Shown: positions 1 to 39,868, counted from the first letter of the stretch. The stretch: DNA of 64,000 nt from Raillietiella orientalis (GCA_036172245.1 JAYWIR010000030.1:2170001-2234000), one strand, 5' to 3'. Notes: generated from the letters alone by a model not told the origin. Program-made: numbers and translations.

Positions 1-123
1 TTGTGTAGGTTTCAGATTTTGTGGTAAAGTAACGAAAATTTTTTTTAGTTTTTTAGTGTAACCTGTTTTAATAAATGATTTCATAATTTCTAAATATGGA
101 ATAAATTTGTGAATGTTTTTCAG

Positions 124-6100: not shown

Positions 6101-9100
6101 ACCCATTAATATCTTGTCAATTAAAACCAGAGAGTAAGAACAGGGATGATTAAAAATGAAAAAGTAACGATTTTTTAACTTCAGAGCCATTGTTGCCTCC
6201 AGCTCAAGTTTTAGACCCATGTAATCCAAATCCTTGTGGGGTTCATGCTGTGTGCTCTGTTGTACAAGCTGCTGCATCCTGCATTTGTTTACCTAATTAC
6301 TTTGGAAATCCATTAGTTTCTTGTCGTCCAGAATGTGTTGCGTCTTCCGAGTGCCCACCAAATTTAGCATGCGTCAATTTAAAATGCAGAAATCCATGTG
6401 TTGATGTATGCGGTACGAATGCTTTTTGCCAAGTTGTAAACCACAAAGCCGTTTGTACGTGCATTAAAGAATATACAGGAGATCCATTTGAAAAGTGCGA
6501 GAAAATTGAAATAGGTTTGTTGAGTGCATAAGTATTTTGTTTTGTAATTTTCAATGGTAGATGATAGAGTTTCTGTCATCGGTGATCCATGCCATCCAAC
6601 ACCTTGTGGGCCATTTTCAAGATGCCAGACTCAGGACGGTGTAGCTGTTTGTTCATGTGATTTCAGTTACATAGGCAGACCACCTAATTGTCGGCCAGAG
6701 TGCAACAGTCATTCAGATTGCTCTTCTGATTCAGTTTGCATGAATCAGAAATGCATAAATCCCTGTCCCTCTTCTTGTGCCGTAAATGCATTATGTTTAT
6801 TAGTTAATCACAACCCAGTATGTAATTGTCCATTGGGATTTACTGGGAATCCATTTATTGACTGCTTTCTTTTTGATGGTAAGAATAGAATCTATTTTTA
6901 AATAATTTTTGGTTTCATACTTTAAAAAACTAACTTTGCATATCCAAAACAATTATGATTCACCGCAATCATTGTCTTTATCATGCAGATCATACAGAAT
7001 CCGAGTTACCAGTGCCTAAACCTTGTGATGATCCCTACTTTTGTGGTGCTAATGCCAAATGTGTAGATGTAAATGGAGTTGGAGTTTGTAGCTGCATTTA
7101 TAACTATGTTGGCAATCCTTATGTGGGCTGTCGGCCACAGTGCGTTTTGAATTCAGATTGCCCTAATATGAAAGCATGTCTGAATAATGAATGTAAAGAC
7201 CCATGTGTTGGAACTTGTGGTATCAATGCAGAATGTTCAGTGCAAAACCATAGTCCTCAGTGTTATTGCCCTCCTGGTTACACAGGAAGAGCTTCAATTT
7301 CATGTACAAAAATTGAATATAGAAGTAAGTCACGCAATGTCAATAATTTCTTATGTTTTCTTACAATTGTTTGTAAATTTGTTGATGTTTTAGTATTATG
7401 TTGAAAATTCAATCATTGAATTCTTTTTTTTTCTCTTTTGTTTTCTAGCAACACCACGGACAGTCCTGAGTGATCCTTGTAATCCATCTCCCTGCGGAGC
7501 AAATGCAATTTGTAGAGTTGTCAGTGGTGTTGGTTCATGTTCATGTTTAAACGAATACACTGGAAATCCTTTAGTAAGCTGTAGGCCTCAGTGCGAAATA
7601 AGTTCCGATTGTCCGTTTCATTTATCATGCTTTAATAACAAATGTGCGGACCCTTGTCCTGGAACTTGTGGATTTAATGCCATTTGCCAAGTTACCAATC
7701 ATGTTCCAAACTGTCGTTGCCCTGCTGATCATACCGGTGATCCTGTATCTTTATGTTCTCCAGTTCCAGTCAGTATGTGATAACCATTGGTGTTGTTTAA
7801 AAGGTATTAATTGTTGTGCGTTTTATTTTTAGTTGAAATTCCACCAGTGGTTCATAACTTGTGTAATCCCAGTCCTTGTGGTCCTAATGCCATTTGTAAA
7901 ATAACTAATCAGAAAGTTAATTGTTTATGTATGCCAAACTTTTATGGCAGCCCACCAAACTGTCATCCTGAATGCCTTTTGGACATGGATTGCACATTTG
8001 AAAAAGCATGTATAGGACAAAAATGCACTGATCCCTGTGTTGGTGCTTGTGGAGTTAATGCAACTTGTGCTGTTCGTAATCATGCTCCAATCTGTAGTTG
8101 CAGTAATGGCTACTCTGGAGATCCATTTACATTTTGCTATGTGCAATCTACAAGTATGATAAAAAAATATCTTAAAAAAACAATATGATTGAAATTTACC
8201 ACGGATTTATTATTTTATAGCTGAAACTCCAAGTCTTCCATTGGATCCATGCATTCCATCTCCATGTGGAGTCAATGCAAAATGCCGGGTTCAAGAAAAT
8301 CACCCTGTTTGCACATGTTTTCCTGAGTTCCTTGGCAATCCATATGAAGGTTGCCGTCCAGAATGTCTTGCACATTCAGAATGTCCTGCAGACCAAGCTT
8401 GCATTAAAAATAAATGTCAAAATCCATGTTTGGGATCATGTGGTCTCAATTCACAATGTTATGTTCAGAGTCATATACCATCTTGTATTTGTACTACTGG
8501 ATATACAGGAGATCCTTTCAGCCACTGTATCCCAGGTATTTTGCGAATATTTCAAAATGTATGCTGAATTGCTTTTTTAGTTTCTCAAGGAAAACTACCT
8601 CATACAGATGCATGTAATCCATCATCTTGTGGAGTCAATACAATTTGCAAAATAGTTGATGACTATCCAGTGTGTACCTGCAAGGAAGGTTATTTTGGTT
8701 CCCCAGAAAATGGATGTCGTCCAGAGTGCATACTGAATTCCGACTGTAATATTGAATTAGCATGCTTAATGCAAAAATGTGCGGATCCTTGCATTGATAC
8801 TTGTGGACAAAGTGCTGAGTGTACAGTTGTAAACCACAATCCCCTGTGTTCTTGTAAAAAAGGATTCTTTGGAGATCCATTTTTACGCTGTAGCAAAAGT
8901 AAGATAATAATACTAATGATTATAAAGTTAATTGTGAAATATAGTTCCAGAAATATCCCAAGAACCTGAAGATCCTTGTCACTTGGGGACTTGTGGTGAA
9001 AATACAGTTTGCAATATAATTGATGGAAGACCTGTTTGTTCCTGCATTGAGAATTACATTGGGAATCCTTCTCTTGGCTGTTATCCAGAGTGTGCTATTC

Positions 9101-12100
9101 ATTCAGATTGCCCCCTTAATCAAGCCTGTATTAAGTGGAAGTGTCGTGATCCTTGCTATGATGTCTGTGGGAAATCTGCAATTTGTGAAGCCATTATGCA
9201 TGTCCCTGTATGCACTTGCCCTGAAGGTTTCACTGGTGATCCATTTTCATTTTGTGAACGAAGTAAGTATAGTATGTCAATAACTTTGCTGTTTACAGAA
9301 TGTCTCCAGTCAGGTTAACAGATCATACCACCACTTCAGCTATTGATCCTTGTTCTCCATCTCCTTGTGGAGCTAATGCTGCTTGTACAATACTTAGCAA
9401 TAGACCATTGTGCACATGTTTACCTGAATATTTTGGCAATCCTCACATTTCTTGTCATCCTGAATGCGTCCTTGATTCAGATTGTCCAACTTATAAGCAT
9501 TGCAAAAATAATAAGTGCATAAATGTGTGTCCTGGTGTTTGTGGTATTAATGCTGAATGTATAACTATAAATCATCATCCTATGTGTTCCTGCGCTGATG
9601 GATATACAGGAGATCCATTTCAATCTTGCAATTGTGAGCACATGGAATCTAGAGTCAGCAAATCACTTGCCTTGTGAATTTCAGTAATTTTGTCAACTAC
9701 TACAATTTCAGTCTTTCAAAATTTATGTTATCCTTCTCCATGTGGAATAAACACGAAATGTGAAATCATAGCAGGACGTCCTGTGTGTACATGCAAAAAA
9801 GGGTTCTTTGGTAACCCCAATGAAGGTTGTCGTCGAGAATGCACATTAAATACAGATTGTGCTTCCCATCTTGCATGTATTAATTACAAATGTCAAGATT
9901 CTTGTTTAAATGTTTGTGGTATTAACGCACAATGTGAAACTTATAATCACAATCCTTTATGTTCTTGTCCTGAAGGGTACTCAGGTGATCCTTTAGAACG
10001 TTGTAAAATCGGTAAATACCTTCATGTCATTTCATCGCATTTCATGGAAATTATGCAAGCATCTATTACTCAGTCAAATGTTTGCATTTTGTCTGTGAGC
10101 TATGTTATGTAATGCTTTTTTGTTTTGTGTAATTGCTTATTATCCATAACAAAATTAATGGATTAATTTTTGTCTTAATGTTCAAAATAGTCATTTAATT
10201 TTTTCTATGGAATATTGCCATGAAAATGAGAATTCTGATGTTGTGTTTTTATTCCATCAGTTGCATCTGTGCCAACTCTTTCTGATCTCTGTAATCCTAA
10301 TCCCTGTGGTATTCGTGCAGAATGTAAAGTGATCAATGAGAAGCATTTTTGTACTTGCCCCCCGGGATTTGAAGGAAATCCCGAAATTCGCTGTCAAGCG
10401 GAGTGTGAAATACATGCAGAGTGCTCCCCAGGAAAAGTTTGTATAAATTACCAGTGTCAGGATCCTTGTATTGGTGCATGTGGTGTTAATGCACACTGTG
10501 AAGTTATCAACGATCATGCATTTTGCACTTGCGCAGCAGAATATGATGGCGATCCTCTTGTTCAGTGTACGCGGAAACCTCCCGGTAATATTTCCTATTA
10601 ACTTGCAAAATAGTATGAATGATTTTTAGTTTCTCCATCTACAGTGCGACCTGAGTGTATCACAAATGGTGAATGTCCTCTAAACCTTGCATGTATTCAG
10701 AATCGATGCCAGGATCTATGTGTTTTGTATCCTGGAATATGTGTTCAGAATGCAGATTGTAAAATGAAATACCACCGTCCTTTTTGTACATGTCGTGATG
10801 GTTTCGTTGGTAATCCTGCAGAACAGTGTGCAGAATGTAATTCAAATTTTGTCAAAAACAATGAGTATCTAATTCCCTATATTTTTTTTTAGCTGGCTGC
10901 TATTCCAATAATGACTGTGATATAACTGAAGCCTGCATTAACAAACAATGCCAAGATCCTTGCATATTTCAAAGTTGTGGTTTTGGTGCTCAGTGTCAAG
11001 TTCAGAACCACAGACCTCAATGCAAATGTCCTATATACTTCACTGGAAATCCTCTGAAACATTGTGAAAGACCAGAATGTTTGTCAAATGATGAGTGCCC
11101 ATTTGTCTTGGCTTGTAAAGACCATCATTGCAAAGATCCATGTAACTGTGGATTGCATGCAGAATGTCAAGTTTTCAACCATCGTCCACAGTGTCGATGC
11201 CCATTTGGATTTGATGGCGATCCTTTAGTTCAGTGTTATTCACGTAAGAAAGAAAAAATGCTTTCTTAATAAATGTATAATGAACTCAGGTACAACATCC
11301 TCATCAGTAGGATGCAGCTCAGATTCTGAGTGTCAGTCTAATTTAGCATGCTTCAATGGTGATTGTGTAAATCCATGTTCCGTTAGCAATCCATGTGGAA
11401 AGAATTCTGTTTGTTCAGTTGTAAATACATTACCATTGAGAGCAATAATTTGCCAGTGTCCAGCTGGAACAACCGGAAATCCAGATGTAGAATGCTCACA
11501 ATGTAAGATGGAAATTGTAAAATTTCTCACATTTATAAGTATCATTGAGACATGTAATTAATGATTGTCCTTTCCCAGTATCCGTCACAGATATCGGCTG
11601 TATGAATGACTTGAGTTGCAAGAATAATGAAATATGTAGAAATCAGCAATGCATTAATCCATGCAGCTTCTTAAGCAACTGTGCTGTCAGTGCCACCTGT
11701 GATGTCCACAATCATCAAATGAAATGTACTTGCCCTGACGGTTTTACTGGGAATCCACAAGAACACTGTTATGCAAGTAAGAACAAGTGCAATTATGTCT
11801 TTATATTGTAAGAACAAAGTAAAAGAAGAAAATGCCTTTGTTTTTATACCCATGATCAATAATCGCTGGAATTGTCTTCTTTCCAGTTTCATTAGTTCCT
11901 CAAGCAGAGTGTCATATTGATGAGAATTGTGTCACAGTTCAAGCTTGTATCAATTCAGAATGTCAAGATCCATGTTCTGTGACTCAAGCTTGTGCTAGGA
12001 ATGCTAAATGTAAAACACAACAACACAGACCATTTTGTTCTTGTGCAGATGGATGGGTCGGTAATCCTCACATTCGTTGCTTTCGGCGTAAGTTTCGTTT

Positions 12101-13517
12101 TAGCTTTCACGGCTTCATGTTTTGATGTTTTCTTTGATGAACATGCATATTAATGTCCATTTTCATAATATAGAAAGTTAGGCATACAATTTGGATTTTG
12201 TATTGTTTTAATATTTCATTTGCAAATTGTCAATTGAAGTTGACTGCATGTGTATTTGTCAAGTTGAAATGGTAGTTCATTTAATCTTGAAAAGTTTGGC
12301 ATTCAAAGATTTGTTCGTTTCAAATATCTAAAAATTTTGTTCAGATAATTTGATTCAAAATTAAGCAAATTTATTTACTATTTTTAGCTGAATGTTTAAA
12401 CGCAAGTGAATGCCCGTATGATAAGGATTGCATTAATGGGAAGTGTTTAAATCCTTGCCAATATGGAAATGTAAACTGTGGACAGAATGCACTTTGCCAT
12501 GTTCTCAAACATGAAGCTCATTGCATGTGCCCCCCCGGAACCCAGGGAAATCCCAACACAGTTTGCATAACTGCTGGGTGTCTTTCCGATCAGCAGTGTC
12601 AGACTAATGAAATATGTGACCGTGTAAATGGTCGTTGTTCTCCTGTATGTCAATTTAATTCTTGTCCATCCACTGCATATTGTAAAGGCGAGAACCATAA
12701 GGCAATATGTATCTGCCCAGAAGGATATCGAGGAAACCCTTACATAAATTGCAGAATTGGTATGGTGTACTGTGATCATCAATAGATTTCTGTTTTCTAG
12801 AATTACCAGCCACTTCAACAGCTAAGCCTGAGTGTGTACGTGATTCAGATTGCCCATCGCAATTAGCTTGTTTGACAGAGACTTGTCAGAATCCATGTTT
12901 AATAGATAAAGCATGCTATCCAGATCAAAAATGTAGTGTCTTAAGTACAGCTCCATTAAAAACCATAATCTGTGAATGTCCTTTGGATACTGTTTTATCT
13001 ACATCTGGAAAGTGCATTGTCCCAGGTGAATTTCAATGTGCTGTCACATAATACAGTAACAAATTCATGTAGGGCCTCATCAAGAATGCTTCAGCGACGT
13101 AGAGTGTTCTTCTATACAAAAATGTAATGCTGGAAAATGTGAAAATCCATGTTTTGTTGGCGACCCTTGTCCAGCCAGTGCTTTTTGTATTCCTCAAAAT
13201 CACAAGTCACAATGCACATGTCCATCAGGAACTACAGGAAATCCAAATTTATTATGTGAACCAGGTAAGAGGAACCTCAGAAACAATACTCGATCACCAA
13301 GTGTATTGATCACTTCTGTATCTCCAGTACGGCCACTTCACTGCATTAACAATCAGCAGTGTTCTCTTGAAGAGTTTTGTTTCGATGGAGAATGCCGCAA
13401 TCCTTGTGATCGACACTTATGTGCATTATCAGCTCATTGTATTGTTGAAAATCATCAGCCTATTTGTAAATGTCCAGCAGGAATGCAAGGAAATCCACTT
13501 ATAGAATGCAAGCCAGG
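124..13517 (+). CDS. dpy: Dumpy exon block: EGF-DPY-EGF repeat exons, mostly ~300 bp with phase-1 introns
   Basis: Repeated exons such as 5813-6134, 8222-8536 and 8944-9262 each encode one EGF+DPY+EGF unit ('CRPEC..NSDCP...AC'). Most introns are 43-60 nt, with a few of 0.3-1.3 kb. Boundaries were read by eye. Confidence 0.88.
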
Positions 13518-16500
13518 TATGAATTATAAACAAATAATGTATAACATAAAACTAATCACATAATTTCTCTAAAAGATGAATTGCGATAACAGATTTTAAC
13601 TTTCTTTTGTGTTACAGTCCAAACCATTTACGAAGATAAGCCTTCCTGTACAAATGATATTCAGTGCTCACCAGATGAAGCATGCATTTCGGGCATATGT
13701 AAGGATCCATGTTCATGTGGATCAAATGCCAAATGTACAGTGGTCAAACATCGACCCATATGCAGCTGTCTACAGGGATTCACAGGAAACCCCCACATAG
13801 AGTGCAGAGAAGGTAATTCATTTCTTACATGATTTTCACATTCCTATATTAAATTACATACAAAAAAATCAAATGAACCCTATGGATTCACTGCATGATG
13901 TTCTTCGTCTAGACTTTAATTTATAATCAACAAAATACACGTAACTCCATATACCAATTTCAGTTGGATGCATCTCGGATTCTCAGTGTACAGCACAAGA
14001 ACTTTGCTACCTACAAAACTGCGTCAATCCCTGTAGCATTCGCAATCCATGTGCCATCAATGCCAAGTGCATTCCCGTTAATCATCAAGCAAGCTGCGAA
14101 TGTCCACAGGGCATGAAAGGAGATCCACACAGTAGATGTATTACAGAAGGATGCCATAACGACAAAGAATGCCCTTCAGAGAATACATGTTTTTTCAATC
14201 AGTGTGTAAACCCATGCCTATATAGTAATCCTTGCGCCCCAAATGCAATCTGCTCCACTGTTAATCATCTTATAAAATGCGATTGTTTACCTTCATCAAC
14301 CGGGGATCCGTATATTCTCTGCAAGACAGCATATGATTCACAATGCAACAACGACTACAATTGTAGTCGGGGATTGGCATGTATCGATCAGCAGTGTATT
14401 GATCCTTGTGCACAAGTGCAACCATGCACAGGAGCATCAAGATGCCAATTAATGGAAACAGTACCTGTAAAAACCATGATTTGCGCATGCCCAACAGGAT
14501 ACACTCAAAACGAAAAACAACAGTGTGAACCAGGTAAACAACAAATCATACATTAGACATTCTACTCCAAAACCAACTCCCACCATTACAGCAACTTAAC
14601 ACGAAACACCACTATCATTAGTATATATCACATTAATCTAAGATTCACTCACCTTTTCCACAGTACAACTACCCAAACAAGAATACGGATGCCAAGTGGA
14701 CAGCGAATGCACTACAAGACAAGCATGCATTAACCGAGACTGCAGGGACCCGTGCAACTGCGGCCTCAACGCGGAGTGCACGGTGGTCAACCACCGTCCC
14801 CTGTGCCGCTGTCCACCCGGATTCGAAGGCAGCCCGCACGTGTCGTGCGTGGAATGTAGGTTCTCTGCTGTGTGCAGCGGCTTGGTATCAGCTGAGAATG
14901 TCGATTTGCAGCGGGCTGCCAGTCGGATGGAGACTGCTCTCCGTCTCAGACGTGCTTCAACCGGAACTGCGTGAACCCTTGCCTGCTGCGCAACCCGTGC
15001 GCCATCAACGCGCAGTGCGGTCCCCAGAACCACAAGGCTTCTTGTCGTTGTCCGCCCGGCACGAGGGGCGATGGATACTCGCGCTGCCTGCCGGAAGGGT
15101 GTTCTTCCGATCGGGAGTGCCCTTCGTCCCAGATGCAGCACCGCCAGTGCGTGGGACCCAAACACCGCAGTAGGCGCGCCGAACGCGAATCCGTCCCGAA
15201 CAACCATCGTGCTCTGTGCTTCTGCCCAGCACCGTTGACGGGCGAGCCCTCACGTCATCTGCCAGCTGGAGCGCCAGCGGATTGCATTGAGGGGACGCGG
15301 ACTGCCCTTCTAAGCTGTCCTGTTTGGAAGGGAATGTTGACCGTGTTTGCTCTGAGCCCGCTGCACCATACCTGTCTAGGTGCGAGGTGCTGGACACGTT
15401 GCCTGTGCGGTCCATGACTTGCGTTTGTCCTCCTGGTTACGTGCTGTCCGGCAGCGATCGCTGCGAACCCGGTAAGAAGGGCATTGTGTGATGGGTACGG
15501 GAATGGCGGCATGGTGTCTGGACATCGCTTGGATTTGCAGCGCCCTTGCGAGGTCCTGTCGCTCGCGTGGCGATCCCCCGTCGGCTGCGAAGCGGAGGCG
15601 CCTTCGCCTGCCTCTTGGTGTGCTGAGAGCGGAATCGGGTTTGTGTGTGTGAAGGTGCGGTGGAGCTGGCTTACCAGCTCCGCTGGCGGGGTAAGGGCTT
15701 CCTCACTCTCGGCCCGTGTCCGAAGCTGTGCTAAGACTCTGGTCTTTGAGCGGGCGCTTGGTTTCCCGGTGGGATGTCGCGGCCGTGGTGAAACTCGGCA
15801 GCGCTGCTGCGCCTCCGTTGTTGTGTGCGACGGCTTCCTGATTCTTGCCACCGGTCTGCCTGCTCACCGCGTGGACGAGCGGTCGGGGTGTTCGGTGCTG
15901 GCGATGCTGCTGCCGAGCGACCGTGGCTTTCTGCGTCTGGGTTGCCCACGCGGGCTCGCCGTCCCGGCTCTTCGTACCGTCCAGGGACTTCTCGTCGTGT
16001 TCGTTTCTGCTATTCCTGAATTCTTTCCTCGTTTGTGTGTCTGTTTTCCGTTTTGTTTTGCTAGCTCAGCGTGAGGTCTCCTTGTCACGCCACGTGCTTG
16101 CGAAGGCTTGCTGTGTGGGCGGCGCGAGGGGGATAGCGGGGCATGGGATGGGCGACGGGCGAGTGTGCGCTGCGTGCGCGACTGTGTGTTTCTGCTGAGC
16201 GTGCGCGCTCGATTTGTGGGGTCTGTGCGCCCTGCTGATGGCTGATGGCTTTCTTAGTGCCACCACCGCAAGGCGAGGTGGGCTGCAAGGACGATCAGGA
16301 GTGTCCTTCGAACCAGGCCTGCATCAGCCGAGACTGCAGGGACCCGTGCAACTGCGGCCTCAACGCGGAGTGCACGGTGGTCAACCACCGTCCCCTGTGC
16401 CGCTGTCCACCCGGATTCGAAGGCAGCCCGCACGTGTCGTGCGTGGAATGTAGGTTCTCTGCTGTGTGCAGCGGCTTGGTATCAGCTGAGAATGTCGATT

Positions 16501-19500
16501 TGCAGCGGGCTGCCAGTCGGATGGAGACTGCTCTCCGTCTCAGACGTGCTTCACCCGGAACTGCGTGAACCCTTGCCTGCTGCGCAACCCGTGCGCCATC
16601 AACGCGCAGTGCGTTCCCCAGAACCACAAGGCTTCTTGTCGTTGTCCGCCCGGCACGAGGGGTGATGGATACCGCGCTGCCCGCCGGAAGGGTGTTCTTT
16701 CCGACTGGGAGTACTTCGTCCCAGATGTGCAGCAACCGCCAGTGTGCGGACCCGTGCCTGCTCCTTCGCAGCAGTGCGCGCCGAACGCGAACTGCGGCCC
16801 GGGACAACCATCAAAAAAAAAAGCCCAAAGCTTCGCCCACACCTCGTTGACGGGCGACCTCGTCATTCGCCAGCTGAGTGCCAGCGGGATTGCACGAGGG
16901 ACGCGGACTGCCCTTCGAAGCTGTCCTGTTTGGAAGGGGAATGTTTGGACCCGTGCTCTGCTCTGAGCCCGTGCACCGGCCTTGTCTAGGCAGGTGTGCT
17001 GCACGTGCTTCGTTCGTGCGGTCCATGACTTGCGTTTTCTGTCCTCCTGGTTACGTGCTGTCCGCAGCGATCGCTGCGAACCCGGTAAGAAGGGCATTGT
17101 GTGATGGGTACGGGAATGGCGGCATGGTGTCTGGACATCGCTTGGATTTGCAGCGCCCTTGCGAGGTCCTGTCGCTCGCGTGGCGATCCCCCGTCGGCTG
17201 CGAAGCGGAGGCGCCTTCGCCTGCCTCTTGGTGTGCTGGGAGCGGAATCGGGTTTGTGTGTGTGAAGGTGCGGTGGAGCTGGCTTACCAGCTCCGCTGGC
17301 GGGGTAAGGGCTTCCTCACTCTCGGCCCGCGTCCGAAGCTGTGCTAAGACTCTGGTCGTTGAGCGGGCGCTTGGTTTCCCGGTGGGATGTCGCGGCCGTG
17401 GTGAAACTCGGCAGCGCTGCTGCGCCTCCGTTGTTGTGTGCGACGGCTTCCTGATTCTTGCCAGCACGCCGTGGTCTGCTCGCTCACTGCGTGGACGAGC
17501 GGTCGGGGTGTTCGGTGCTGGCGATGCTGCTGCCGAGCGACCGTGGCGTTTCTGCGCCTGGGTTGCCCACGCGGGTTCGCTGTCCTGGCTCTTCGTACCG
17601 TCCAGGACTTCGCCGTTCGTTTCTGCTGCTTCCGGAATCTCTTCCTCGTTTGTGTGTCTCCAGTCCGTTTTGTTTCACAGCCCAACCCACGGTCTCCTCG
17701 TCACGCCACGTGCTTGCGAAGGCTTGCTGTGTGGGCGGCGCGAGGGGGATAGCGGGGCATGGGATGGGCGACGGGCGAGTGTGCGCTGCGTGCGCGACGG
17801 TGTGTTTCTGCTGAGCGTGCGCGCTCGATTTGTGGGGTCTGTGCGCCCTGCTGATGGCTGATGGCTTTCTTAGTGCCACCACCGCAAGGCGAGGCCGCGG
17901 AGGACGATCAGGAGGTCCTTCGAACCAGGCCTGCATCAAAGCCGAGACCGCAGGGATCTGCACCGGGTGGCCTCAACGCGGAGTGCACGGTGGTCAACCA
18001 CCGTCCCCTGTGCCGCTGTCCACCCGGATTCGAAGGCAGCCCGCACGTGTCGTGCGTGGAATGGTGGTTCTCTGCCGTGCGTGCAGCATTTCTGGTATCG
18101 GCTGAACGTCGATTTGCAGCGGGCTGCCAGTCGGATGGAGACCGCTCTCCGTCTCAGACGTGCTTCAACCGGAACTGCGTGAACCCTTGCCTGCTGCGCA
18201 ACCCGTGCGCCATCAACGCGCAGTGCGTTCCCCAGAACCACAAGGCTTCTTGTCGTTGTCCGCCCGGCACGAGGGGCGATGGATACTCGCGCTGCCTGCC
18301 GGAAGGGTGTTCTTCCGATCGGGAGTGCCCTTCGTCCCAGATGTGCAGCAACCGCCAGTGCGTGGACCCGTGCCTGTTCTCGCAGCAGTGCGCGCCGAAC
18401 GCGAACTGCGTCCCGAACAACCATCGTGCCCAGTGCTTCTGCCCAGCACCGTTGACGGGCGACCCTCACGTCATCTGCCAGCTGGAGCGCCAGCGGGATT
18501 GCACGGATGACGCGGACTGCCCTTCGAAGCTGTCCTGTTTGGAAGGGGAATGTTTGGACCCGTGCTCTGCTCTGAGCCCGTGCACCGGCCCGTTCAGGGT
18601 GCGAGGTGCTGGACACGCTGCCTGTGCGGTCCATGACTTGCATTGAGTCCTCCTGGTTACGGCTGTCCGGCAGCGATCGCTGCGAACCCGGTAAGAAGGG
18701 CATTGTGTGATGGGTACGGGAATGGCGGCATGGTGTCTGGACATCGCTTGCATTTGCAGCGCCCTTGCGAGGTCCTGTCGCTCGCGTGGCGATCCCCCGT
18801 CGGCTGCGAAGCGGAGGCGCCTTCGCCTGCCTCTTGGTGTGCTGAGAGCGGAATCGGGTTTGTGTGTGTGAAGGTGCGGTGGAGCTGGCTTACCAGCTCC
18901 GCTGGCGGGGTAAGGGCTTCCTCACTCTCGGCCCGCGTCCGAAGCTGTGCTAAGACTCTGGTCTTTGAGTGGGCGCTTGGTTTCCCGGTGGGATGTCGCG
19001 GCCGTGGTGAAACTCGGCAGCGCTGCTGCGCCTCCGTTGTTGTGTGCGACGGCTTCCTGATTCTTGCCAGCACGCCGTGGTCTGCTCGCTCACTGCGTGG
19101 ACGAGCGGTCGGGGTGTTCGGTGCTGGCGATGCTGCTGCCGATGACCGTGGCGTTTCTGCGCCGGGGTTGCCACGCGGGCTCGCTGTCCGTCTTCGTACC
19201 GTCCAGGACTTCTCGTCGTCTGCTTCTGCTTGCTTCCGGAATTCTTCTCGTTTGTGTGTCTGTTTTCCGTTTTGTTTTGGTTAGCTCTGCCGCGAGGTTC
19301 CCGTCGCCGCCACGTGCTTGGCAGCCGCTGCTGTGTGGCGGCGCGAGGATAGCGGGGCATGGGATGGGCGGGATGGCGAGCGGCGCTGCGTGCGCGACCG
19401 TGTGTTTCTGCCGAGCGTGCGCGCTCGATTTGTGGGGTCTGTGCGCCCCGTTGATGGCTGATGTTGGATGGGGCCACCACTGCAAGGCGAGGTGGGCTGC

Positions 19501-22500
19501 AAGGACGACCAGAGTGTCCTTCGAACCAGGCCTGCATCAGCCGAGACTGCAGGGACCCGTGCAACTGCGGCCTCAACGCGGAGTGCACGGTGGTCAACCA
19601 CCGTCCCCTGTGCCGCTGTCCACCCGGATTCGAAGGCAGCCCGCACGTGTCGTGCGTGGAATGTAGGTTCTCTGCTGTGTGCAGCGGCTTGGTATCAGCT
19701 GAGAATGTCGATTTGCAGCGGGCTGCCAGTCGGATGGAGACTGCTCTCCGTCTCAGACGTGCTTCAACCGGAACTGCGTGAACCCTTGCCTGCTGCGCAA
19801 CCCGTGCGCCATCAACGCGCAGTGCGTTCCCCAGAACCACAAGGCTTCTTGTCGTTGTCCGCCCGGCACGAGGGGCGATGGATACTCGCGCTGCCTACCG
19901 GAAGGGTGTTCTTCCGATCGGGAGTGCCCTTCGTCCCAGATGTGCAGCAACCGCCAGTGCGTGGACCCGTGCCTGTTCTCGCAGCAGTGCGCGCCGAACG
20001 CGAACTGCGTCCCGAACAACCATCGTGCCCAGTGCTTCGGCCCAGCACCGTTGACGGGCGACCCTCACGTCATCTGCCAGCTGGAGCGCCAGCGGGATTG
20101 CACGGAGGACGCGGACTGCCCTTCGAAGCTGTCCTGTTTGAAGGGGAATGTTTGGACCCGTGCTCTGCTCTGTTTCTCCGCACTGCGGGCCCTGTCTAGG
20201 TGCGAGGTGAAGTGACAGCCCGTGCGGTCCATGACTTGCGTCATCCTCTGAGCTGGGGTCATTCAAGAAGGATCGCCGCGTGAACCCGGTAAGAAGGGCA
20301 TTGTGTGATGGGTACGGGAATGGCGGCATGGTGTCTGGACATCGCTTGACGGTGCCTGCGAGGTCCTGTCGCTTCGCGGCGATCCCCCGTCGGCTGCGAA
20401 GCGGAGGCGCCCCTCTGCCTGCTCTTGTGCTGGGAGCTGTGGAATCGGGTTTGTGTGAAGGTACGGTGGAGCGGGTTTACTAGGCCCGCTGGCGGGGTAA
20501 GGGCTCTCCTCGGCCTGCATCCGAAGCTGTGCTAAGACTCTGGTCTTTGAGCGGGCGCTTGGTTTCCCGGTGGGATGTCGCGGCCGTGGTGAAACTCGGC
20601 AGCGCTGCTGCGCCTCCGTTGTTGTGTGCGACGGCTTCCTGATTCTTGCCAGCACGCCGTGGTCTGCTCGCTCACTGCGTGGACGAGCGGTCGGGGTGTT
20701 CGGTGCTGGCGATGCTGCTGCCGAGCGACCGTGGCGTTTCTGCGCCTGGGTTGCCCACGCGGGTTCGCTGTCCTGGCTCTTCGTACCGTCCAGGACTTCT
20801 CGTCGTGTTCGTTTCTGCTGCTTCCGGAATTCTTTCCTCGTTTGTGTGTCTGTTTTCCGTTTTGTTTTGCTAGCTCGCTGCGAGGTCTCCTTGTCACGCC
20901 ACGTGCTTGCGAAGGCTTGCTGTGTGGGCGGCGCGAGGGGGATAGCGGGGCATGGGATGGGCGACGGGCGAGTGTGCGCTGCGTGCGCGACTGTGTGTTT
21001 CTGCTGAGCGTGCGCGCTCGATTTGTGGGGTCTGTGCGCCCTGCTGATGGCTGATGGCTTTCTTAGTGCCACCACCGCAAGGCGAGGTGGGCTGCAAGGA
21101 CGATCAGGAGTGTCCTTCGAACCAGGCCTGCATCAGCCGAGACCGTAGGACCCGCAACTGCGGCTCAACGCGGGAGTGCACGGTGGTCAACCAACGTCCC
21201 CTGTGCCGCTGTCCACCCGGACGGAAGGCAGCCCGCACGTGTCGTGCGTGGAATGTAGGTTCTCTGCTGTGTGCAGCGGCTTGGTATCAGCTGAGAATGT
21301 CGATTTGCAGCGGGCTGCCAGTCGGATGGAGACTGCTCTCCGTCTCAGACGTGCTTCAACCGGAACTGCGTGAACCCTTGCCTGCTGCGCAACCCGTGCG
21401 CCATCAACGCGCAGTGCGTTCCCCAGAACCACAAGGCTTCTTGTCGTTGTCCGCCCGGCACGAGGGGCGATGGATACTCGCGCTGCCTGCCGGAAGGGTG
21501 TTCTTCCGATCGGGAGTGCCCTTCGTCCCAGATGTGCAGCAACCGCCAGTGCGTGGACCCGTGCCTGTTCTCGCAGCAGTGCGCGCCGAACGCGAACTGC
21601 GTCCCGAACAACCATCGTGCCCAGTGCTTCTGCCCAGCACCGTTGACGGGCGACCCTCACGTCATCTGCCAGCTGGAGCGCCAGCGGGATTGCACGGAGG
21701 ACGCGGACTGCCCTTCGAAGCTGTCCTGTTTGGAAGGGGAATGTTTGGACCCGTGCTCTGCTCTGAGCCCGTGCACCGGCCTGTCTAGGTGCGAGGTGCT
21801 GGACACGTTGCCTGGGGTATCCATGACTCTGCGTTTGTCCTCCTGGTTACGTGCTGTCCGGCAGCGATCGCTGCGAACCCGCAGTAAGAAGGGCATTGTG
21901 TGATGGGTACGGGAATGGCGTACGGTGTCCGGACATCGCTTGATTTGCAGCGCCTGCGAGGTCCTGCTCGCGTGGCGATCCCCTGTCGTCGGTGAAGGAG
22001 GCGCCTGCCTGCCTCGGCAGTGCTGAGAGCGGAATCGGGTTTGTGTGTGTGAAGGTGCGGTGGAGCTGGCTTACCAGCTCCGCTGGCGGGGTAAGGGCTT
22101 CCTCACTCTCGGCCCGCGTCCGAAGCTGTGCTAAGACTCTGGTCGTTGAGCGGGCGCTTGGTTTCCCGGTGGGATGTCGCGGCCGTGGTGAAACTCGGCA
22201 GCGCTGCTGCGCCTCCGTTGTTGTGTGCGACGGCTTCCTGATTCTTGCCAGCACGCCGTGGTCTGCTCGCTCACTGCGTGGACGAGCGGTCGGGGTGTTC
22301 GGTGCTGGCGATGCTGCTGCCGAGCGACCGTGGCGTTTCTGCTCCTGGGTTGCCCACGCGGGTTCGCTGTCCTGGCTCTTCGTACCGTCCAGGACTTCTC
22401 GTCGTGTTCGTTTCTGCTGCTTCCGGAATTCTTTCCTCGTTTGTGTGTCTGTTTTCCGTTTTGTTTTGCTAGCTCGCTGCGAGGTCTCCTTGTCACGCCA

Positions 22501-25500
22501 CGTGCTTGCGAAGGCTTGCTGTGTGGGCGGCGCGAGGGGGATAGCGGGGCATGGGATGGGCGACGGGCGAGTGTGCGCTGCGTGCGCGACTGTGTGTTTC
22601 TGCTGAGCGTGCGCGCTCGATTTGTGGGGTCTGTGCGCCCTGCTGATGGCTGATGGCTTTCTTAGTGCCACCACCGCAAGGCGAGGTGGGCTGCAAGGAC
22701 GATCAGGAGTGTCCTTCGAACCAGGCCTGCATCAGCCGAGACTGCAGGGACCCGTGCAACTGCGGCCTCAACGCGGAGTGCATCGCGGTCAACCACCGTC
22801 CCCAAGGTGCCGCTGTCCACCCGGATTCGAAGGCAGGCCCGCACGTGTCGTGCGTGGAATGTAGGTTCTCTGCTGTGTGCAGCGGCTTGGTATCAGCTGA
22901 GGAACGTCGATTTGCAGCGGGCTGCCAGTCGGATGGAGACTGCCTCCGTCTCCAGACGTGCTTCAACCGGAACTGCGTGAAATCTTCCTTGCCTTCGCTG
23001 CGCAACCCGTGCGCCATCAACGCGCAGTGCGTTCCCCAGAACCACAAGGCTTCTTGTCGTTGTCCGCCCGGCAATGAAAGGAGCGGATACCGCGCTGCCT
23101 GCCGGAAGGGTGTTCTTCCGATCGGAGTGCCCTTCCAGATGTGCAGCAACCGCCAGTGCGTGGACCCGTGCCTGTTCTCGCAGCAGTGCGCGCCGAACGC
23201 GAACTGCGTCCCGAACAACCATCGTGCCCAGTGCTTCTGCCCAGCACCGTTGACGGGCGACCCTCACGTCATCTGCCAGCTGGAGCGCCAGCGGGATTGC
23301 ACGGAGGACGCGGACTGCCCTTCGAAGCTGTCCTGTTTGGAAGGGGAATGTTTGGACCCGTGCTCTGCTCTGAGCCCGTGCACCGGCCTGTCTAGGTGCG
23401 AGGTGCTGGACACGTTGCCTGTGCGGTCCATGACTTGCGTTTGTCCTCCTGGTTACGTGCTGTCCGGCAGCGATCGCTGCGAACCCGGTAAGAAGGGCAT
23501 TGTGTGATGGGTACGGGAATGGCGGCATGGTGTCTGGACATCGCTTGCATTTGCAGCGCCCTTGCGAGGTCCTGTCGCTCGCGTGGCGATCCCCCGTCGG
23601 CTGCGAAGCGGAGGCGCCTTCGCCTGCCTCTTGTTGTGCTGAGAGCGGAATCGGGTTTGTGTGTGTGAAGGTGCGGTGGAGCTGGCTTACCAGCTCCGCT
23701 GGCGGGGTAAGGGCTTCCTCACTCTCGGCCCGTGTCCGAAGCTGTGCTAAGACTCTGGTCTTTGAGCGGGCGCTTGGTTCCCGGTGGAAGGTCGCGGCCG
23801 TGGCGGTCGGCGGCAGCGCCGCTGCGCCTCCACTGCGTCGAAGGATCGCCTTGGTGGCCCTTGCCAGCACGCCGTGGTCTGCTCGCTCAATGCGTGGACG
23901 AGCGGTCGGGGTGTTCGGTGCCGTATGATGCTGCTGCCGAGCGACCGTGGCGTTTCTGCGCCTGGGTTGCCCACGCGGGTTCGCGGTCCTGGCTCTTCGT
24001 ACCGTCCAGGACTTCTCGTCGTGTTCGTTTCTGCTGCTTCCGGAATTCTTTCCTCGTTTGTGTGTCTGTTTTCCGNNNNNNNNNNNNNNNNNNNNNNNNN
24101 NNNNNNNNNNNNNNNNNNNNNNNNNNNNNNNNNNNNNNNNNNNNNNNNNNNNNNNNNNNNNNNNNNNNNNNCAGCGCTGCTGCGCCTCCGTTGTTGTGGG
24201 CGACGGCTTCCTGATCCTTGCCAGGCCACCGGTTTGTTCTCTTTTAGTCTGTAAGTGAGCAGTCAGGTTGTTGGGTGTTGTTTGATAATTTTTTCAGGGG
24301 CCATCTCTTTTCAGTTTGAGGTTTGTCACTCGTAAGGTTCAGTTTTTGGTACGCGAATCTATGGAGATTTTCAAACACTTTTTCGACTTTTATACGTGCT
24401 TTGACGGTTCATTTGTTCCTGTGTGTGTTACGTGTTTGGTTTGTGATTCTTCGTTTCTTTATTTTTGATCTCTTTTTCTTTTTTAATTTTGTTCGATTTG
24501 CTGTTTTGTTTGGCTTCTTCTGTGGTGGTTGTTCTCGTTTGTGTGGATTTGGAATAGATTGTATATTTTTTTATTTGAGGATTTTGAGTTTATTTGTTTA
24601 TTACTATTTGTTTTTGTCTTTTGTTTTTAGTTTCCAAGGAAGACGATGGATTCTGTAAATCTGATTCGGGATGTGCCTCAAACTTAGCTTGTGTTAACAG
24701 TGTGTGTCTTGATCCCTGTAATTGCGGTTCAAATGCTGTTTGTTCTGTTGCCAGTCATCGCCCATCCTGCACTTGTCCTTTGAATTCTTTTGGTAATCCT
24801 TTGATTTCTTGTTTTAAAGGTTAGTTTTTGTTATTTTTTGATTGTTTTTTTACCTATTTGTTTTTTAAGGTGACTGTGTTTCTGATAATGATTGTCCAAT
24901 TTCTGAAGTGTGTAGGAAGTTCCATTGCCATAATGTTTGTTCAGTATTCAATCCTTGTGCCATTAATGCAATGTGTATACCTCACAATCATAGAGCCACT
25001 TGTGAGTGCCCTGCTGGAATGAAGGGTGACCCATTTAAGCACTGTATCCCCTCTGGTTGTCGTTCAAAGCTGGAGTGCCCTCTGTTGGAGATTTGTGTCA
25101 ATGGGCGATGTGTTAACCCTTGTCTTTTTGAAAACAGATGTGCTGTAAATGCTGAATGCATCCCTAGTCGTCATGATTCTGTTTGCTTTTGTCCGGCTCC
25201 TTTGATTGGAGACCCGTATAAGCTATGTGCTTTTGAAAAGCAATTTGAATGTTCTGTGGATTCTGATTGTGGAAAGGGACTTGTTTGTTTGGATCATGTT
25301 TGTAAGAATCCGTGCTTATCTTCACAGCCTTGTGGAGGATTGGGAAGGTGTTCCGTAGTGGATACTCACCCTGTGAAGTCAATGGTGTGCTCATGTCCAT
25401 CTGGATATGTTCTTGCTGATGGCAACATCTGTCAACCTGGTAATGTTTGTTTTTTTGAGGGGGGATTGTTTTTTTTTGGTTTGCAGGTTGATTTGTTTTT

Positions 25501-28500
25501 TGGCGTAGTTTTTATTTTATTTGTTTGAAGGAATGTTTGGTTTCTGTTGGTACATATTCTTTAAATGTTAAATTGTTTGCTTTATTTATTTGCAATGTAT
25601 AGTTAGCTTTTTTGATGTGTTGTTTTTGTTCTGGTTGTTTTTTTCTATCTAATTTTTTTCCCTTTCTAGTGATTTGTGTCTTTTAATGCTTTTTGTGATC
25701 TTTTTTTACTATTGAACGAAGTTTTATTTTATTTTACTTAATCTGGTTTAGTTTTCCCGTTCAGTGTTGTTTTGAATTTTGGTTCGTTTTTTTGTTGATT
25801 TACTTTATTGGTTTTCATTAGTCATCCCTTTTTTACTCATGTTCTGTCTGTATTTTTTTTCTTGTGGGATGTTTTTACTATTCTTTCTTTCATCTTTTCA
25901 ATAATTTTCTTTTTTTTTTTGTAGATATATTCCCATTTTTTCAGTGTTTTTGGTTTTGTTTGGTTTATGTTCGATGTTTTGGTATGTCAGTCATTTGCTG
26001 AATGCATTCTTGGAAGAATTTGGTTTTATGGTATTAATGTTATGTAGGTGCATGGAATGCATATGTGTATGCATTTGGAATCAGTTTTTTGTTTGAAATT
26101 TTTCATTTTGAAAGTTGTTTATTTTATTTTCGTTCTAATTGTGAATAATTTCATGTGACCCATATTACTATGGTTTGTTCATTAGCTGTTGGTTGTTGTT
26201 GATTTGAATTGTTTTTATTTTTAACTTTTTGAGTTTTCTCTGCTGGGTATTTGGTTTTGTCTCTGTTTAGTGTCAAAAGCAATACCAATGCTTCAATTTT
26301 CGGTTTTTGATTATTATCAATGTTTTGTTTGCTTTGGTTTTGGTATTGTTTTATTTGAATCCCTTGACAGTGTAGCTCTTTCTAATTTATTGTGTAGACT
26401 ACAATATTTTTATATTGTTCATTGTGTTGCATTTTTTGGCAATATTTTTTTTTAAGGGTGTGTTGAGTTTCGTTTGTTTATTTTTTTTGGTAGTATTTGT
26501 CTTGTTTTCTGAAGTCTTTGCAAGTATTCTTTCTAAAGAGATTTGGAATTTTATAGCTGTTCATAATTGAAATTTTTTTTTGGAATTGAATATTAAATTG
26601 TTTTGCTTTGAGATTTTTGATTTTTGACTCGGTATTTTTTGTCAGGAATATTATTGTTTGAAAACATTTTCATTCAACTGCTCCTAGGTGTTGACTTTTG
26701 TTTCAAACTGGATTTTGAATATGTGCTTCTAGCAATTTTTGTGTATTTTTTTGTAAACTTTTGAATGATTTGGAGCTCACTTGTTGTTTAGAAAATCTTT
26801 TTTTATATTCATATTTTTTTTATTTTTGATTGTTTTCCTTGCAGTCATGAGATTTCATTCAGTATAGCTCAATTGATGATTCTTATAGTATTTAGTCTAT
26901 TGTCTATATCATGTGAAGTCTTTGAGGATGCTGCTTGTTAATAATTTTCATCATGTTGCTTGATTTTGATATCATTCCTGGGCTTCCAGTCGCACAAGTG
27001 TTTTATTGTTTTTAATGATTCAAATATTCAATTAGGGAATGTTTTTTGTGACCTGTTTTTAATTTTTAGTCTGATAATGGACGTAATGTATTAATTTGCA
27101 GATATGCTAATTTTTCTTGATTGTATCTAATAATGACTTAGCAGATAATCTGAAGGGATTATATAATGTGAACTGAAAGTCACTGAAGTTTTTTAAATCT
27201 TGGCATTTCAGTCTATGATACATTGGAGAAAATGGGTTGTACTTCTCATGAGCAGTGCCCTGTGAATGAAGCCTGCATCAATGGTCAATGCAAAGATGCC
27301 TGCAATTGTGGTCTCAATGCCGTGTGTACTGTGAAAGATCACAGACCAATATGTAGATGCCCACCTGGTTATGAAGGACCAGCTTATATTGCATGTACAG
27401 AATGTAGGTTTACTTTATTGTATGATTTCAAAATTGCTGCTGTTGCTTTTCTTTTTAGCTGGTTGTAGCTCAGACACACAATGCTCTTTGCTGCAGACCT
27501 GTTATAACCATGACTGTGTTAATCCTTGTAGTATAAGTAATCCATGTGCTATTAATGCACAGTGCACACCTAAAGATCACAAATCGACTTGTCAGTGCCC
27601 TTTAGGAATGAAAGGCGATGGATATACTCGTTGTCTACCTGAAGGATGCTCATCTGACCATGACTGTTCTCAGTCACAAATATGTCTAAATCGTCAGTGT
27701 GTTAATCCATGCCTGCATAGGAATCCTTGTGCTCCCAATGCTGAGTGTTTTGCAAATAACCATCGAGCTGAATGCTATTGTTCACCCTCAATGACTGGCA
27801 ATCCTTATGTGATATGTGAAAGTCTTCAAGAACCTGAATGTGTTCGTGATGAAGATTGCCCAAACAAGTTAGGTTGCTTCAATCAAGTTTGTCTCGACCC
27901 TTGCTCCTTAATAAAGCCCTGTGTTGGGATAGCTAAATGCGAAGTTATAAACATTTTACCTGTAAGATTGATGATTTGCATGTGTCCTTTGGGATACATA
28001 TTATCTTCGGATAACAAATGTGTACCAGGTAAAATTCATATCTATGTCCAATTTTTAGCTGTAGTTTTTGGCTTGTTAGGCTGTTTGTGTTCGCAAATGT
28101 TTGTGCTTTTCTTACTTTATTCGTCTTTTCATTGAAAAATTTAATTTTGGAAAATTCGCTGTCAACCATTGTTTGTTCATGTTCCGTTTATGTCAGTATT
28201 TTGAATTTCATAAGTTTGGTTATATTTTTATTTTGACCATTTTTGACGAATTTTTTTTCACGTAATTTATAGTGCAGCAACAATTAACTAAAGTAGGATG
28301 CACCACGGACAGCGATTGTTCTTCTAATCAGGCTTGCATTAATGGAAATTGTAAGGATCCTTGCATATGTGGGTTGAATGCTCAATGCACTGTCATTAAT
28401 CATCATCCAATTTGTACGTGTTTATCGGGATACGAGGGAAATCCTCAGCTTTCTTGCACAAAATGTAAGTCATGTATGTTGGTGGACATGCATTTCTATT

Positions 28501-37500: not shown

Positions 37501-39868
37501 CCTCTGATTGTCCAGATCACTTAGCTTGTATCCGAGAAAACTGCGTTGACCCTTGTCTGAGTGATTTATGTCATGGCAAAGAATGTAAGGTGCTTGATCA
37601 CAATGCTACATGCTATTGCCCTCATGGGATGAGACTCTCCACAACTGGAGAATGTGAAAGTAATATTTCCTAAGTAATAGTTATACTCTAATTATGCATT
37701 CCTTCATCTAGGAGTTCTTGGCTGTAAAACAGATGATCAATGTCTTGCATCACTTTCTTGTATAAATGGTAAATGCGTGAACGCATGTCAGGAATTGAAT
37801 CCCTGTGCAATGGAAGCCTACTGCATTGTGGCAGATACTTTTCCTGTTCGGACCTTAACATGTGTTTGTCCACCTGGATTGCATGGAAAAGCAGACGTGA
37901 AATGCTTAAAACGTAATTTTGCACGAATCTACTAGATTTTACGTTTTTTATCGTTTTAGCTTCCACATGCCCCACAGAATTAGGATTCGTTTTGAACGAT
38001 AATGGAGAATGTGTATGTCCTACAGAAAGAGGACTAGCCGTGGACCATAGGGGATATTGTGTAACTTGCCCTGTATTACAAGGATATGTCATCGATGAGA
38101 AAGGTCGATGTGTTTGTGCTGTGGAAAAAGGAATGCAGCTCACTTCTACAGGTGAATGCATTTGCCCAGCGCCTTTGTATGAGTTTCACGATGGAATCTG
38201 CCTTGCTGGTAAGGATTAATAGCGTTTGTGAGAAGTTAAACGAATGTTTATTCTCAGTTCCACCACCAAGTGTGGAACCAGAGTGTTTGGATAATTCCGA
38301 CTGTCCAGACAGCAAAGCTTGTTTGAATCAATCATGTGTCAATCCATGTAGCATTCATCATTGTGGTACTAATGCAGTATGTGAAGTGATAAATCATGAA
38401 CCAGTGTGTAATTGCATATTTGGATACACTGGTGATCCCCATGCAATTTGCAGTTAGTATCCTATAGCTAATAACTTCTCATGGGTCTTATCTGTTTTGT
38501 AGATCCAGCTGATCCAGCCACTGAATTTCCTCCATCACGGACAGACTTTGTTAAACCAGACATGGTCGTTAATTGCTTATCTGATGGCGTTTTAGTGAAT
38601 TTTAAAATGTCAGATGGCGGATTCAATGGTATACTTTATGTAAAGGGCTATAGTAAAGAAGCTGATTGTCGAAAAGTATTAAAGCCCGGTATAGATATAG
38701 ATATTGATTTTAAGGTGTTGTTTGATACTTGTGGTTTAGTCCATCAAAATGTAAGCAGATGCTTAGCATACACTGACTTGTTATTATTTGGAATTAATCT
38801 TAGGGAGAAGCTACATTTACTTTGGTAGTACAGAAACATCCTAAATTAATTACACATAAAGCACAGGCGTTTCGTGTACGTTGCCTCTATGGCACAGGAG
38901 ACAAGACAGTTATTCTTGGATTTAATGTCAGTATGGTGACCACTGCAGGAACCATAGCAAATACAGGACCACCTCCTGTTTGTACCATGAAAATCGTTGG
39001 TCCTAATGGTGGCGAAATTTCTTCTGCCGAGATTGGCGATGAACTTTCTTTAAAAGTAGAAGTTCAACCTTCCAGTATGTAGACATACTCAAATGTAAGA
39101 GCAAAATAGTAATTCTTCTAAACAGCCGTATACCACGGTTTTGTCCGCAAATGTGTGGCTAAAACCATAGACGAGCATGGTGAAAATGAATACCAGGTGA
39201 CAGATGAAAATGGATGCTCTACTAATCCTTCTATATTCAGCGAGTGGAATTACGATCCTTCCACGGAATCATTGTTGGCATCATTTAATGCCTTCAAATT
39301 TCCTAGTAGCAATAGTATACGGTTTCAGTGCAATATACGCGTTTGTTTTGGACAGTGCCAACCAGTATGTGACAGTTTTCCATATTATCATAATGCTGTT
39401 TTTATAGGTAAATTGCGCTAATGTAAATGCTTACGGCAGAAGACGACGTGAAATCGAAGGTTTGCAATCACCTTACGAATCAATATATACAGGAGCTTTC
39501 CAAGAAGAGATTTTAGTTGAGTCAAACGCAATTCTCACGCTGGAAAGAAGAGAAAGTCGTTTTGTTGACCCAACAGAAGGTACAATGAACCATTAATCGT
39601 TTTATTTAACATTTATATGTGTGCAATTGCAGCTCCTGAGATAATAGCAGAGGAAGTATGTGTATCTTTCTATGGATTCATTGTAGCATTGATTATTACT
39701 GCATTGTTGGCATTGGTTGCTGTTGCTGTTGCTGTTTCTTGTTGGTTAATGGCTTACCGCCAACATCCAAAATATGCTGGTCCACTTCCTCATCCTGCTG
39801 AGTTTCCAAATCCTTTATATACAACTCCAGAACCAGTTGCAGAACCTATCCCTGATTACCTTAGCTAA
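124..39868 (+). CDS. dpy: Dumpy-like giant EGF/DPY-repeat, ZP-domain transmembrane apical ECM protein; multi-exon, 5' part lies outside the window
   Basis: Dozens of GT-AG bounded exons encode tandem EGF and DPY modules (PC.PSPCG.NA.C...C.C...Y.G.P...CRPEC..NSDC...ACIN.KC.DPC...CG.NA.C.V.NH.P.C.C..G.TGDP), followed by a ZP domain, GRRRRE, a hydrophobic helix and the tail PLPHPAEFPNPLY..PEP..EPIPDYLS*. This architecture matches arthropod Dumpy. Confidence 0.93.
14734..24230 (+). repeat. GC-rich, homogenised ~1.6 kb tandem array of a Dumpy exonA-intron-exonB-intron unit (at least 6 copies)
   Basis: Exon A starts at 14664 (chimeric), 16258, 17874, ~19473, 21067 and 22666, giving a period of 1594-1616 bp. 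Splice signals are conserved in most copies (gaat|gtaggttc...tttgcag|cgg; gaacccg|gtaagaag...ttcttag|tgcc). Introns are as similar between copies as exons. A sampled line (15001-15060) is 39/60 GC. Confidence 0.95.
24076..24171. other. Assembly gap (96 N) inside the tandem array
   Basis: Run of N. Sequence after the gap resumes at an intron position upstream of where the pre-gap sequence stopped, so the true copy number is unresolved. Confidence 0.97.
38503..39449 (+). CDS. dpy: Zona pellucida (ZP) domain exons of Dumpy with tetrabasic furin site
   Basis: Exons 38503-38750, 38804-39074, 39126-39364 and 39408-39579 encode VNCLSDGV...GFNGILYVKG, QKHPKLITHKAQAFRVRCLY, VTDENGCST...FNAFKFPSSNSIRFQCNIRVCFGQCQPVNC. 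RRRR lies at 39438-39449. Confidence 0.93.
39633..39868 (+). CDS. dpy: Dumpy last exon: transmembrane helix and short cytoplasmic tail
   Basis: After the acceptor ttgcag (ends 39632): FIVALIITALLALVAVAVAVSCWLMAY, then RQHPKYAGPLPHPAEFPNPLYTTPEPVAEPIPDYLS and TAA. Confidence 0.92.

Follow-up and report, generated by a model that had tools for sequence, protein, structure and literature searches.

How has a block of GC-rich repeats come to lie inside an AT-rich gene, and what is the T-rich intron into which it runs on its right side? The window analysed here is a stretch of 64,000 nucleotides of Raillietiella orientalis DNA. A preliminary description had claimed that, past the last near-exact array sequence, this intron can still be aligned to the GC-rich unit and fades into an AT-rich homolog of it. 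It had also read the GC-rich intron as native, and the transition as a footprint of directional change, with the terminal copy keeping or reverting to host composition. As a whole, that interpretation is partly supported. We consider it reasonably likely that the stretch marks where, on the right, a tandem array undergoing concerted evolution within a dumpy-like gene comes to an end, its GC content having been raised by biased conversion.

The host gene and its tandem array

From about 0.2 to 39.9 kb of the window, the plus strand carries one very large gene made of cysteine-rich modules, whose EGF/DPY modules and ZP domain mark it as a dumpy-like arthropod matrix gene. EGF-like modules are recognised by Pfam in exon B of the array unit (PF12947, 29.0 bits, cut-off 28.5) and in the upstream unit U_L (PF00008, 25.1 bits, cut-off 21.5). 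A DPY module is found at 38257-38451 (PF21164, 33.1 bits, cut-off 27); in the array unit the same family scores 23.5 and 22.7 bits, under that cut-off. The top database proteins are unnamed or hypothetical ones from arthropods, with at most 48% identity, the named sources being a shrimp and two beetles. With array exon B as query, the top match among proteins of 302-2000 amino acids has 48% identity, below that of paralogs within the gene, and a DNA search for an outgroup returned four metagenome loci, all distant (28-48% identity). The ZP domain exons lie at the C-terminal end of the gene (38475-39868, plus strand); CUT_N, scored on split exons, stays under its cut-off there. Reading by eye, a putative basic RRRR site is seen in the same interval, and the open reading frame 39569-39868, after the ZP-C domain, contains a hydrophobic stretch that may be a membrane anchor.

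Background GC is about 0.33-0.39, and reaches 0.62-0.65 at 15-24 kb, in the array. The array unit measures 1612 bp, consisting of exon A (192 nt), intron 1 (56 nt), exon B (570 nt) and intron 2 (794 nt), and is repeated at least six times; five complete units plus a partial first and a partial last one are assembled. Donors of intron 2 are located at 15472, 17085, 18691, 20289, 21884 and 23488, and landmark motifs recur with periods of 1595-1613 bp. The array is not reported by Tandem Repeats Finder, for which the longest period is 500. Its majority consensus has an intact open frame of 254 codons in which every framework cysteine is retained. In exon-intron plan, phase and cysteine framework, the array agrees with 11 paralogous units elsewhere in this gene, all of them AT-rich.

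These 11 further units, all full-length and built to the same plan, were found by tblastn with the consensus unit, and their exons B share 39-58% amino-acid identity with that of the array. The immediate neighbours, U_L and U_R, are no closer to the array than the other units (identities in the table). In a maximum-likelihood tree the array unit falls within an unresolved group of eight units, among the clade of neighbouring units, on a terminal branch of 0.35 versus a median of 0.89; the terminal branches of the paralogs measure 0.29-1.57 changes per site and have no close sister. The array unit is an old, slowly evolving member of the family.

The assembled array copies are 91-95% identical to one another, with 1253 of 1664 alignment columns invariant, and are far more alike than the older paralogs, the nearest of which has 58% amino-acid identity to the array unit. 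Nearly all of the variable columns (372 of 411) are singletons, private to one copy. These private differences are clustered, up to 19 per 50 columns with long identical runs in between, and include frameshifts. They are also symmetric in direction, with 144 strong-to-weak and 153 weak-to-strong differences besides 161 indel columns. The patches are probably assembly noise rather than divergence, most likely consensus error in a collapsed repeat. The array is also interrupted by an assembly gap: before it, array sequence stops late in intron 2 (equivalent to about 22458 of unit 5), and after it resumes at position 327 of intron 2. The two flanks of the gap are thus out of register beyond a unit boundary, so at least one array unit is missing. 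Since the array is collapsed, gapped and noisy in the assembly, gene models over it will be wrong or broken.

Table 1. Features of the array, its edges and the surrounding gene (positions counted from the first letter of the window).
Feature	Position	Strand	Remarks
Upstream paralogous unit U_L	13647..14532	+	50% amino-acid identity to array exon B; unusually A/C-rich
Left edge: AT-rich 5' part of exon A, first unit	14664..14733	+	in frame with array
GC-rich tandem array inside gene	14734..24224	+	GC 0.63, CpG o/e 1.01
Dense private-difference patches, single array copies	15120-15370, 16660-17000, 17880-18110, 19150-19500, 20310-20560, others
Partner stretch, array intron 2 of unit 5	22199..22367	+	sets diagonal, offset 1973
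Assembly gap, 96 N, inside array	24076..24171	.	run of N
Final near-exact array sequence, intron 2 positions 327-380	24172..24225	+	51/54 identical to array consensus
Edge zone: AT-richer homolog of array intron 2	24226..24340	+	67/110 aligned positions identical; GC ~0.38-0.50
Remaining T-rich intron to acceptor of next unit	24341..24622	+	without detectable array-intron homology; GC ~0.38 to 0.20-0.28
Downstream paralogous unit U_R	24654..25438	+	51% amino-acid identity to array exon B; intact frame; T3 0.54
ZP-C domain PF00100	39122-39421	+	32.8 bits, cut-off 24.6

The T-rich intron at the right edge

The 96-N gap ends directly before the final near-exact array sequence, which sets a priori the diagonal (offset 1973 to unit 5) on which the rest of the intron can be compared with the array. 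Ungapped on this diagonal, 32 of the 52 positions of 24229-24280 are identical, a value attained by none of 20000 shuffles. Over 24229-24326, identity is found at 51 of 98 positions (shuffle mean 26.7, z 5.9), attained by none of 20000 shuffles and by none of 1495 other placements. The T-rich intron is therefore alignable to the array unit past the last near-exact sequence, as had been claimed. Colinear gapped alignments were compared with dinucleotide shuffles, 1000 each. The segments 24257-24280 (z 5.3, 0/1000 shuffles) and 24281-24340 (z 3.5, 2/1000) stand out, 24229-24256 less so (z 1.3, 136/1000), and the segments beyond, 24341-24400 (207/1000) and 24401-24460 (317/1000), are not significant; a looser test gives no significant 60-nt segment anywhere in 24289-24622. 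Across 24172-24630, the interval put forward for alignment in the preliminary description, similarity past ~24230 is thus significant against shuffles up to about 24340, and is not significant over 24341-24622. The intron past ~24340 is either unrelated or too old to be aligned.

Three short matches had been singled out beforehand. The first, 24257-24280 against 22284-22307, lies where it was placed and has 19 of 24 positions identical, again attained by none of 20000 shuffles; it is the sole placement out of 1580 in a unit to score 19, the runner-up scoring 15. Four of its five differences are A/T in the flank versus G/C in the array, also as described. The other two are correctly placed, on or beside the diagonal of offset 1973, and weak when taken alone. 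The second (24231 against 22260) sits 2 nt off the main diagonal, and its 9 identities out of 13 are equalled by 7 of 1591 placements, and the third (24320 against 22347, with one indel) is equalled by 13 of 1590.

When the array is masked, blastn and nhmmer do not report 24229-24340 by itself, so the significance of this segment rests on the a-priori diagonal and the first match. The silence of both programs, together with the weakness of the second and third matches taken singly, is what would be seen if two G+T-rich, low-complexity introns resembled each other by chance. Set against this are a diagonal fixed in advance, identities along it that neither the shuffles nor the other placements attain, and a first match that is unique among the placements in its unit; chance similarity is scarcely credible. 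Homologs of the array intron were sought elsewhere in the window and none were found, the best blastn hit being T-rich sequence with an E-value of 1.1 and nhmmer giving zero. Because the paralogs are old and the other introns of the window hold no homolog of the array intron, the edge zone of about 115 nt must be far younger than the paralogs.

The word "fades" describes this transition in part. Identity does drop past the array, and its profile is a step rather than a slope: it stands at 94%, falls to about 60%, a level shared by the first and second half of the following ~115 nt, and is then undetectable. In successive 40-nt bins, GC runs 0.70, 0.50, 0.38, 0.45, 0.38, 0.38, 0.38, 0.20, 0.42, 0.28 and 0.20, the zone of intermediate GC extending slightly past the alignable part.

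The differences between edge zone and array are strongly directional. Among the 43 mismatches in 24226-24340, the array has G/C and the flank A/T in 32, with the opposite arrangement in 4; a further 7 pair G/C with G/C, and none pairs A/T with A/T. Expressed as retention, 29 of 33 array A/T positions are kept in the edge zone, versus 38 of 77 array G/C positions. The spectrum is thus not symmetric, and differs from the symmetric one among the array copies (Fisher p 1.9e-6). By this direction of differences, the possibility that the edge zone is one more patch of assembly noise is ruled out.

The ratio of 32 to 4 fits an AT-rich ancestor from which the array gained GC, and fits equally well an older tract, once GC-rich, that AT-biased mutation has since eroded. 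Of the two fates proposed for the terminal copy, keeping host composition or reverting to it, the ratio thus picks neither. A test of polarity by CpG decay gave no excess: G/C positions in array CpG are changed in 13 of 32 cases and other G/C positions in 26 of 45.

Polarity of the array lineage and the left edge

Polarity can be assigned to the array lineage as a whole. Columns were used if a common base occurs in at least 80% of the other units, so that the reference is the majority of paralogs and not an outgroup species. Polarised in this way, weak-to-strong changes number 27 in the array lineage and strong-to-weak changes 2. In the eleven remaining lineages the counts are 3-18 and 2-15, respectively, pooling to 116:80 (Fisher p 0.0003 versus the array). 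When restricted to codon positions 1 and 2, they are 9:2 for the array and 83:80 for the others (p 0.06). The GARP amino acids make up 29% of the array unit versus 19-24% of the paralogs, and FYMINK 11% versus 18-28%. GC3 is 0.79 in the array and 0.23-0.35 in the 11 paralogs (near 27%); T3 is 0.44-0.54 in ten of these and 0.30 in U_L. Array intron 2 has a GC content of 0.63, and the paralog introns of about 0.18-0.34. The polarised counts and the shift in composition together show that the array lineage became GC-rich at introns, silent sites and replacement sites alike. A footprint of directional change is present in the array lineage; the 32:4 ratio of the edge zone restates the difference in composition and carries no polarity of its own.

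The left edge lies in an exon. Unbroken identity to the array begins at 14734, inside exon A and in frame, and the junction is gapless. GC jumps from 0.45 to 0.70 in the adjoining 40-nt bins. In 14664-14740, an interval whose last 7 bases already belong to the array, 45 of 77 nt agree with the corresponding array sequence. Codons 10-26 of the AT-rich exon A piece of the first unit match the array at 32 of 51 positions and unit U28, an old paralog, at 33 of 51. A fading zone on this side is ruled out by that comparison: the left flank is no closer to the array than old paralogs are, which makes the left edge abrupt. The 128-nt intron further upstream does not align with the 794-nt array intron. 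A recognisable remnant is present at the right edge only.

Both flanks are incomplete as units and need the array part, the left junction is gapless and in phase, and the right flank is homologous to the array; the array must therefore be native. The earlier claim that the GC-rich intron is native stands, given its colinear homology with the AT-rich flank and the unit plan that the array keeps in common with the paralogs. A chimeric join to a GC-rich contaminant, or a noisy contig end mimicking a fading homolog, would instead make the edge an assembly artefact or foreign DNA. The 96-N gap ends at 24171, so that the stretch in question forms the first 180 nt of a contig, and the array copies do contain error-like clustered patches made up mostly of singletons, as this explanation would have it. 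It is made very improbable by the left junction, which is in frame at the homologous exon position, by the need of the AT-rich flanks for the array part to be complete, by the symmetric direction of the array noise as opposed to the edge differences, and by the downstream exons, which are intact and contain no stop codons.

A local origin is also at issue if the array was written in by conversion from a distant GC-rich paralog, the edge zone then being the end of an ectopic tract. The sharpness of the edges on both sides would suit such an event. The adjoining intron is homologous to the array intron, which points to an origin in place, and the array unit belongs inside the clade of the neighbouring units; we regard conversion from a distant source as quite improbable.

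What raised the GC content

Array and flanks differ in GC (63% versus about 35%) and in CpG o/e, which is 1.01 in the array (14741-24075) and outside it 0.41 (1-14500), 0.46 (24229-27200) and 0.49 (27201-48000). The gene body looks CpG-depleted as if germline-methylated, and the array does not. GC and identity switch jointly, over no more than about 10 nt on the left side of the array and about 30 nt on the right. The GC-rich tract stops where the homogenised tract does, in an exon at one end and in an intron at the other, and this shared ending is the main argument that exchange itself raised GC.

Concerted evolution with biased conversion would then proceed as follows. One old member of a family of ~250-codon, two-exon units would have been amplified, and its copies held near-identical by unequal exchange or gene conversion. 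The homogenised tract is GC-rich at every class of site, and ends where the GC-rich tract ends. On the right, homogenisation would at present reach as far as intron 2 of the final copy, up to about 24225, and the next ~115 nt would be the same intron, no longer reached by it. The edge zone may preserve the ancestral state from before the enrichment, or it may be what decay towards AT has left of an earlier conversion tract. The driver would be GC-biased repair of heteroduplex mismatches during exchanges between copies, i.e., GC-biased gene conversion, which from the coincidence of the GC-rich and homogenised tracts is the best, albeit not a proven, explanation. Several features speak against this reading: the edge is a step to about 60% identity and not a smooth gradient, the left edge has no comparable zone, the edge differences carry no polarity, and the copies have noise-like patches with a gap next to the stretch. 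GC in the array introns is also below GC3 (0.63 versus 0.79), contrary to what would be expected of a force acting without regard to the class of site.

The main rival is that the progenitor unit was already GC-rich for some other reason and was then recently amplified, so that homogenisation is not the cause. It might, for example, have been a segment unmethylated in the germline, similar to a CpG island or acting as a recombination hotspot, whose mutational equilibrium differed. The contrast in CpG o/e between array and flanks agrees with this, as does the near-identity of the copies outside the noisy patches, which is what recent amplification would leave. The GC-rich, CpG-rich region at 49-56 kb, not known as an array, also suggests that GC-rich islands may exist outside arrays. 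If the causes were independent, however, the ending of the GC-rich tract at the repeat ends on both sides would be a coincidence, and the absence of CpG decay alone cannot raise GC from about 0.3 to 0.63. We consider pre-existing GC-richness of the unit unlikely.

The array could also play a more active part than that of a target of conversion, serving as an initiation zone of CpG-island-like character: a replication origin, for instance, or an R-loop-prone divergent germline promoter. The strand skew, which changes sign across the array as detailed below, would fit this. A single activity would then account for breaks and exchanges as well as for the GC enrichment, the retention of CpG and a mirrored mutational asymmetry of the two flanking units. 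To our mind this idea is highly doubtful.

The phenomenon, read as concerted evolution with GC-biased conversion, is of a known kind, here unusually stark, and the edge shows, cleanly and as would be expected, the mark left by GC-biased homogenisation of repeats. Raised GC under concerted evolution, attributed to GC-biased gene conversion, is also a feature of histone, Hsp70 and rDNA cases, and terminal copies that escape homogenisation occur at the ends of satellite arrays.

Three systems come close. In mammalian gene pairs, GC is higher in the introns and third codon positions of converted regions than in their flanks (PMC2720389). The array resembles them, as far as that text describes them, in the rise of GC in introns and GC3 of the homogenised part and in forming a mosaic within a gene. 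Unlike those pairs, the copies are units within one gene, comprising exons and introns, and the host is an arthropod; concerted evolution is read from the copies of one assembly, and the contrast is larger than in the pairs there described (GC3 0.79 versus ~0.27, introns 0.63 versus ~0.27; PMC2720389). A portion of Drosophila dumpy, the PIGSFEAST repeats, is in concerted evolution through unequal crossing over (PMC2930355). The likeness to these repeats lies in the EGF-DPY and ZP gene family and in near-identical tandem copies inside a gene; PIGSFEAST, in that account, is a 102-amino-acid repeat in one large exon, whereas here an EGF/DPY unit of 254 codons has two introns (PMC2930355). In spider silk genes, homogenisation does not extend to the repeats at the two ends of an array (PMC3933166). 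As in those terminal repeats, the outermost copy is partly homogenised and divergence sets in past a limit; unlike the silk-gene ends as there presented, the escaped part differs in base composition, and a remnant is found at one of two edges (PMC3933166).

If GC-biased conversion is the correct explanation, a single gene would serve as an internal control for this process in an arthropod. Among twelve paralogous units sharing structure, transcription and selective regime, only the multi-copy, homogenised one would be GC-rich, separating the effect of exchange between copies from those of region, expression and codon selection with which it is usually confounded. Given outgroup or population data, the edge zone would be a place to date and measure the process.

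A few further observations concern the surroundings of the array. The second GC-rich region, at 49-56 kb, has a GC content of 0.54 and a CpG o/e of 0.91. It includes, in a single open reading frame on the minus strand (50368-51093), a complete Cu/Zn superoxide dismutase domain (PF00080, 129.6 bits), near which four long open reading frames have no Pfam match. In 21800-27300, no known RNA family attains its gathering score. The long intron after U_R contains a weak C/D-box snoRNA-like match to RF00315 (27071-27144, plus strand; 25.8 bits, gathering score 45, E 0.043), which is probably due to chance.

Strand skew, calculated as (T-A)/(T+A)+(G-C)/(G+C), flips across the array (13200-14699 versus 24229-27228). 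On the left, it ranges from -0.14 to -0.64 in five 300-nt windows, with -0.64 in the last 300 nt; the 128-nt intron located there (14536-14662) has a G content of 0.04 and an A content of 0.41, and unit U_L an A3 of 0.36. On the right, ten successive 300-nt windows, which take in the exons of U_R, have values between +0.42 and +0.99. Elsewhere, over 166 windows, the mean is 0.08 (SD 0.15, range -0.45 to 0.53). Skew of this sign would be expected at a replication origin or where transcription is divergent.
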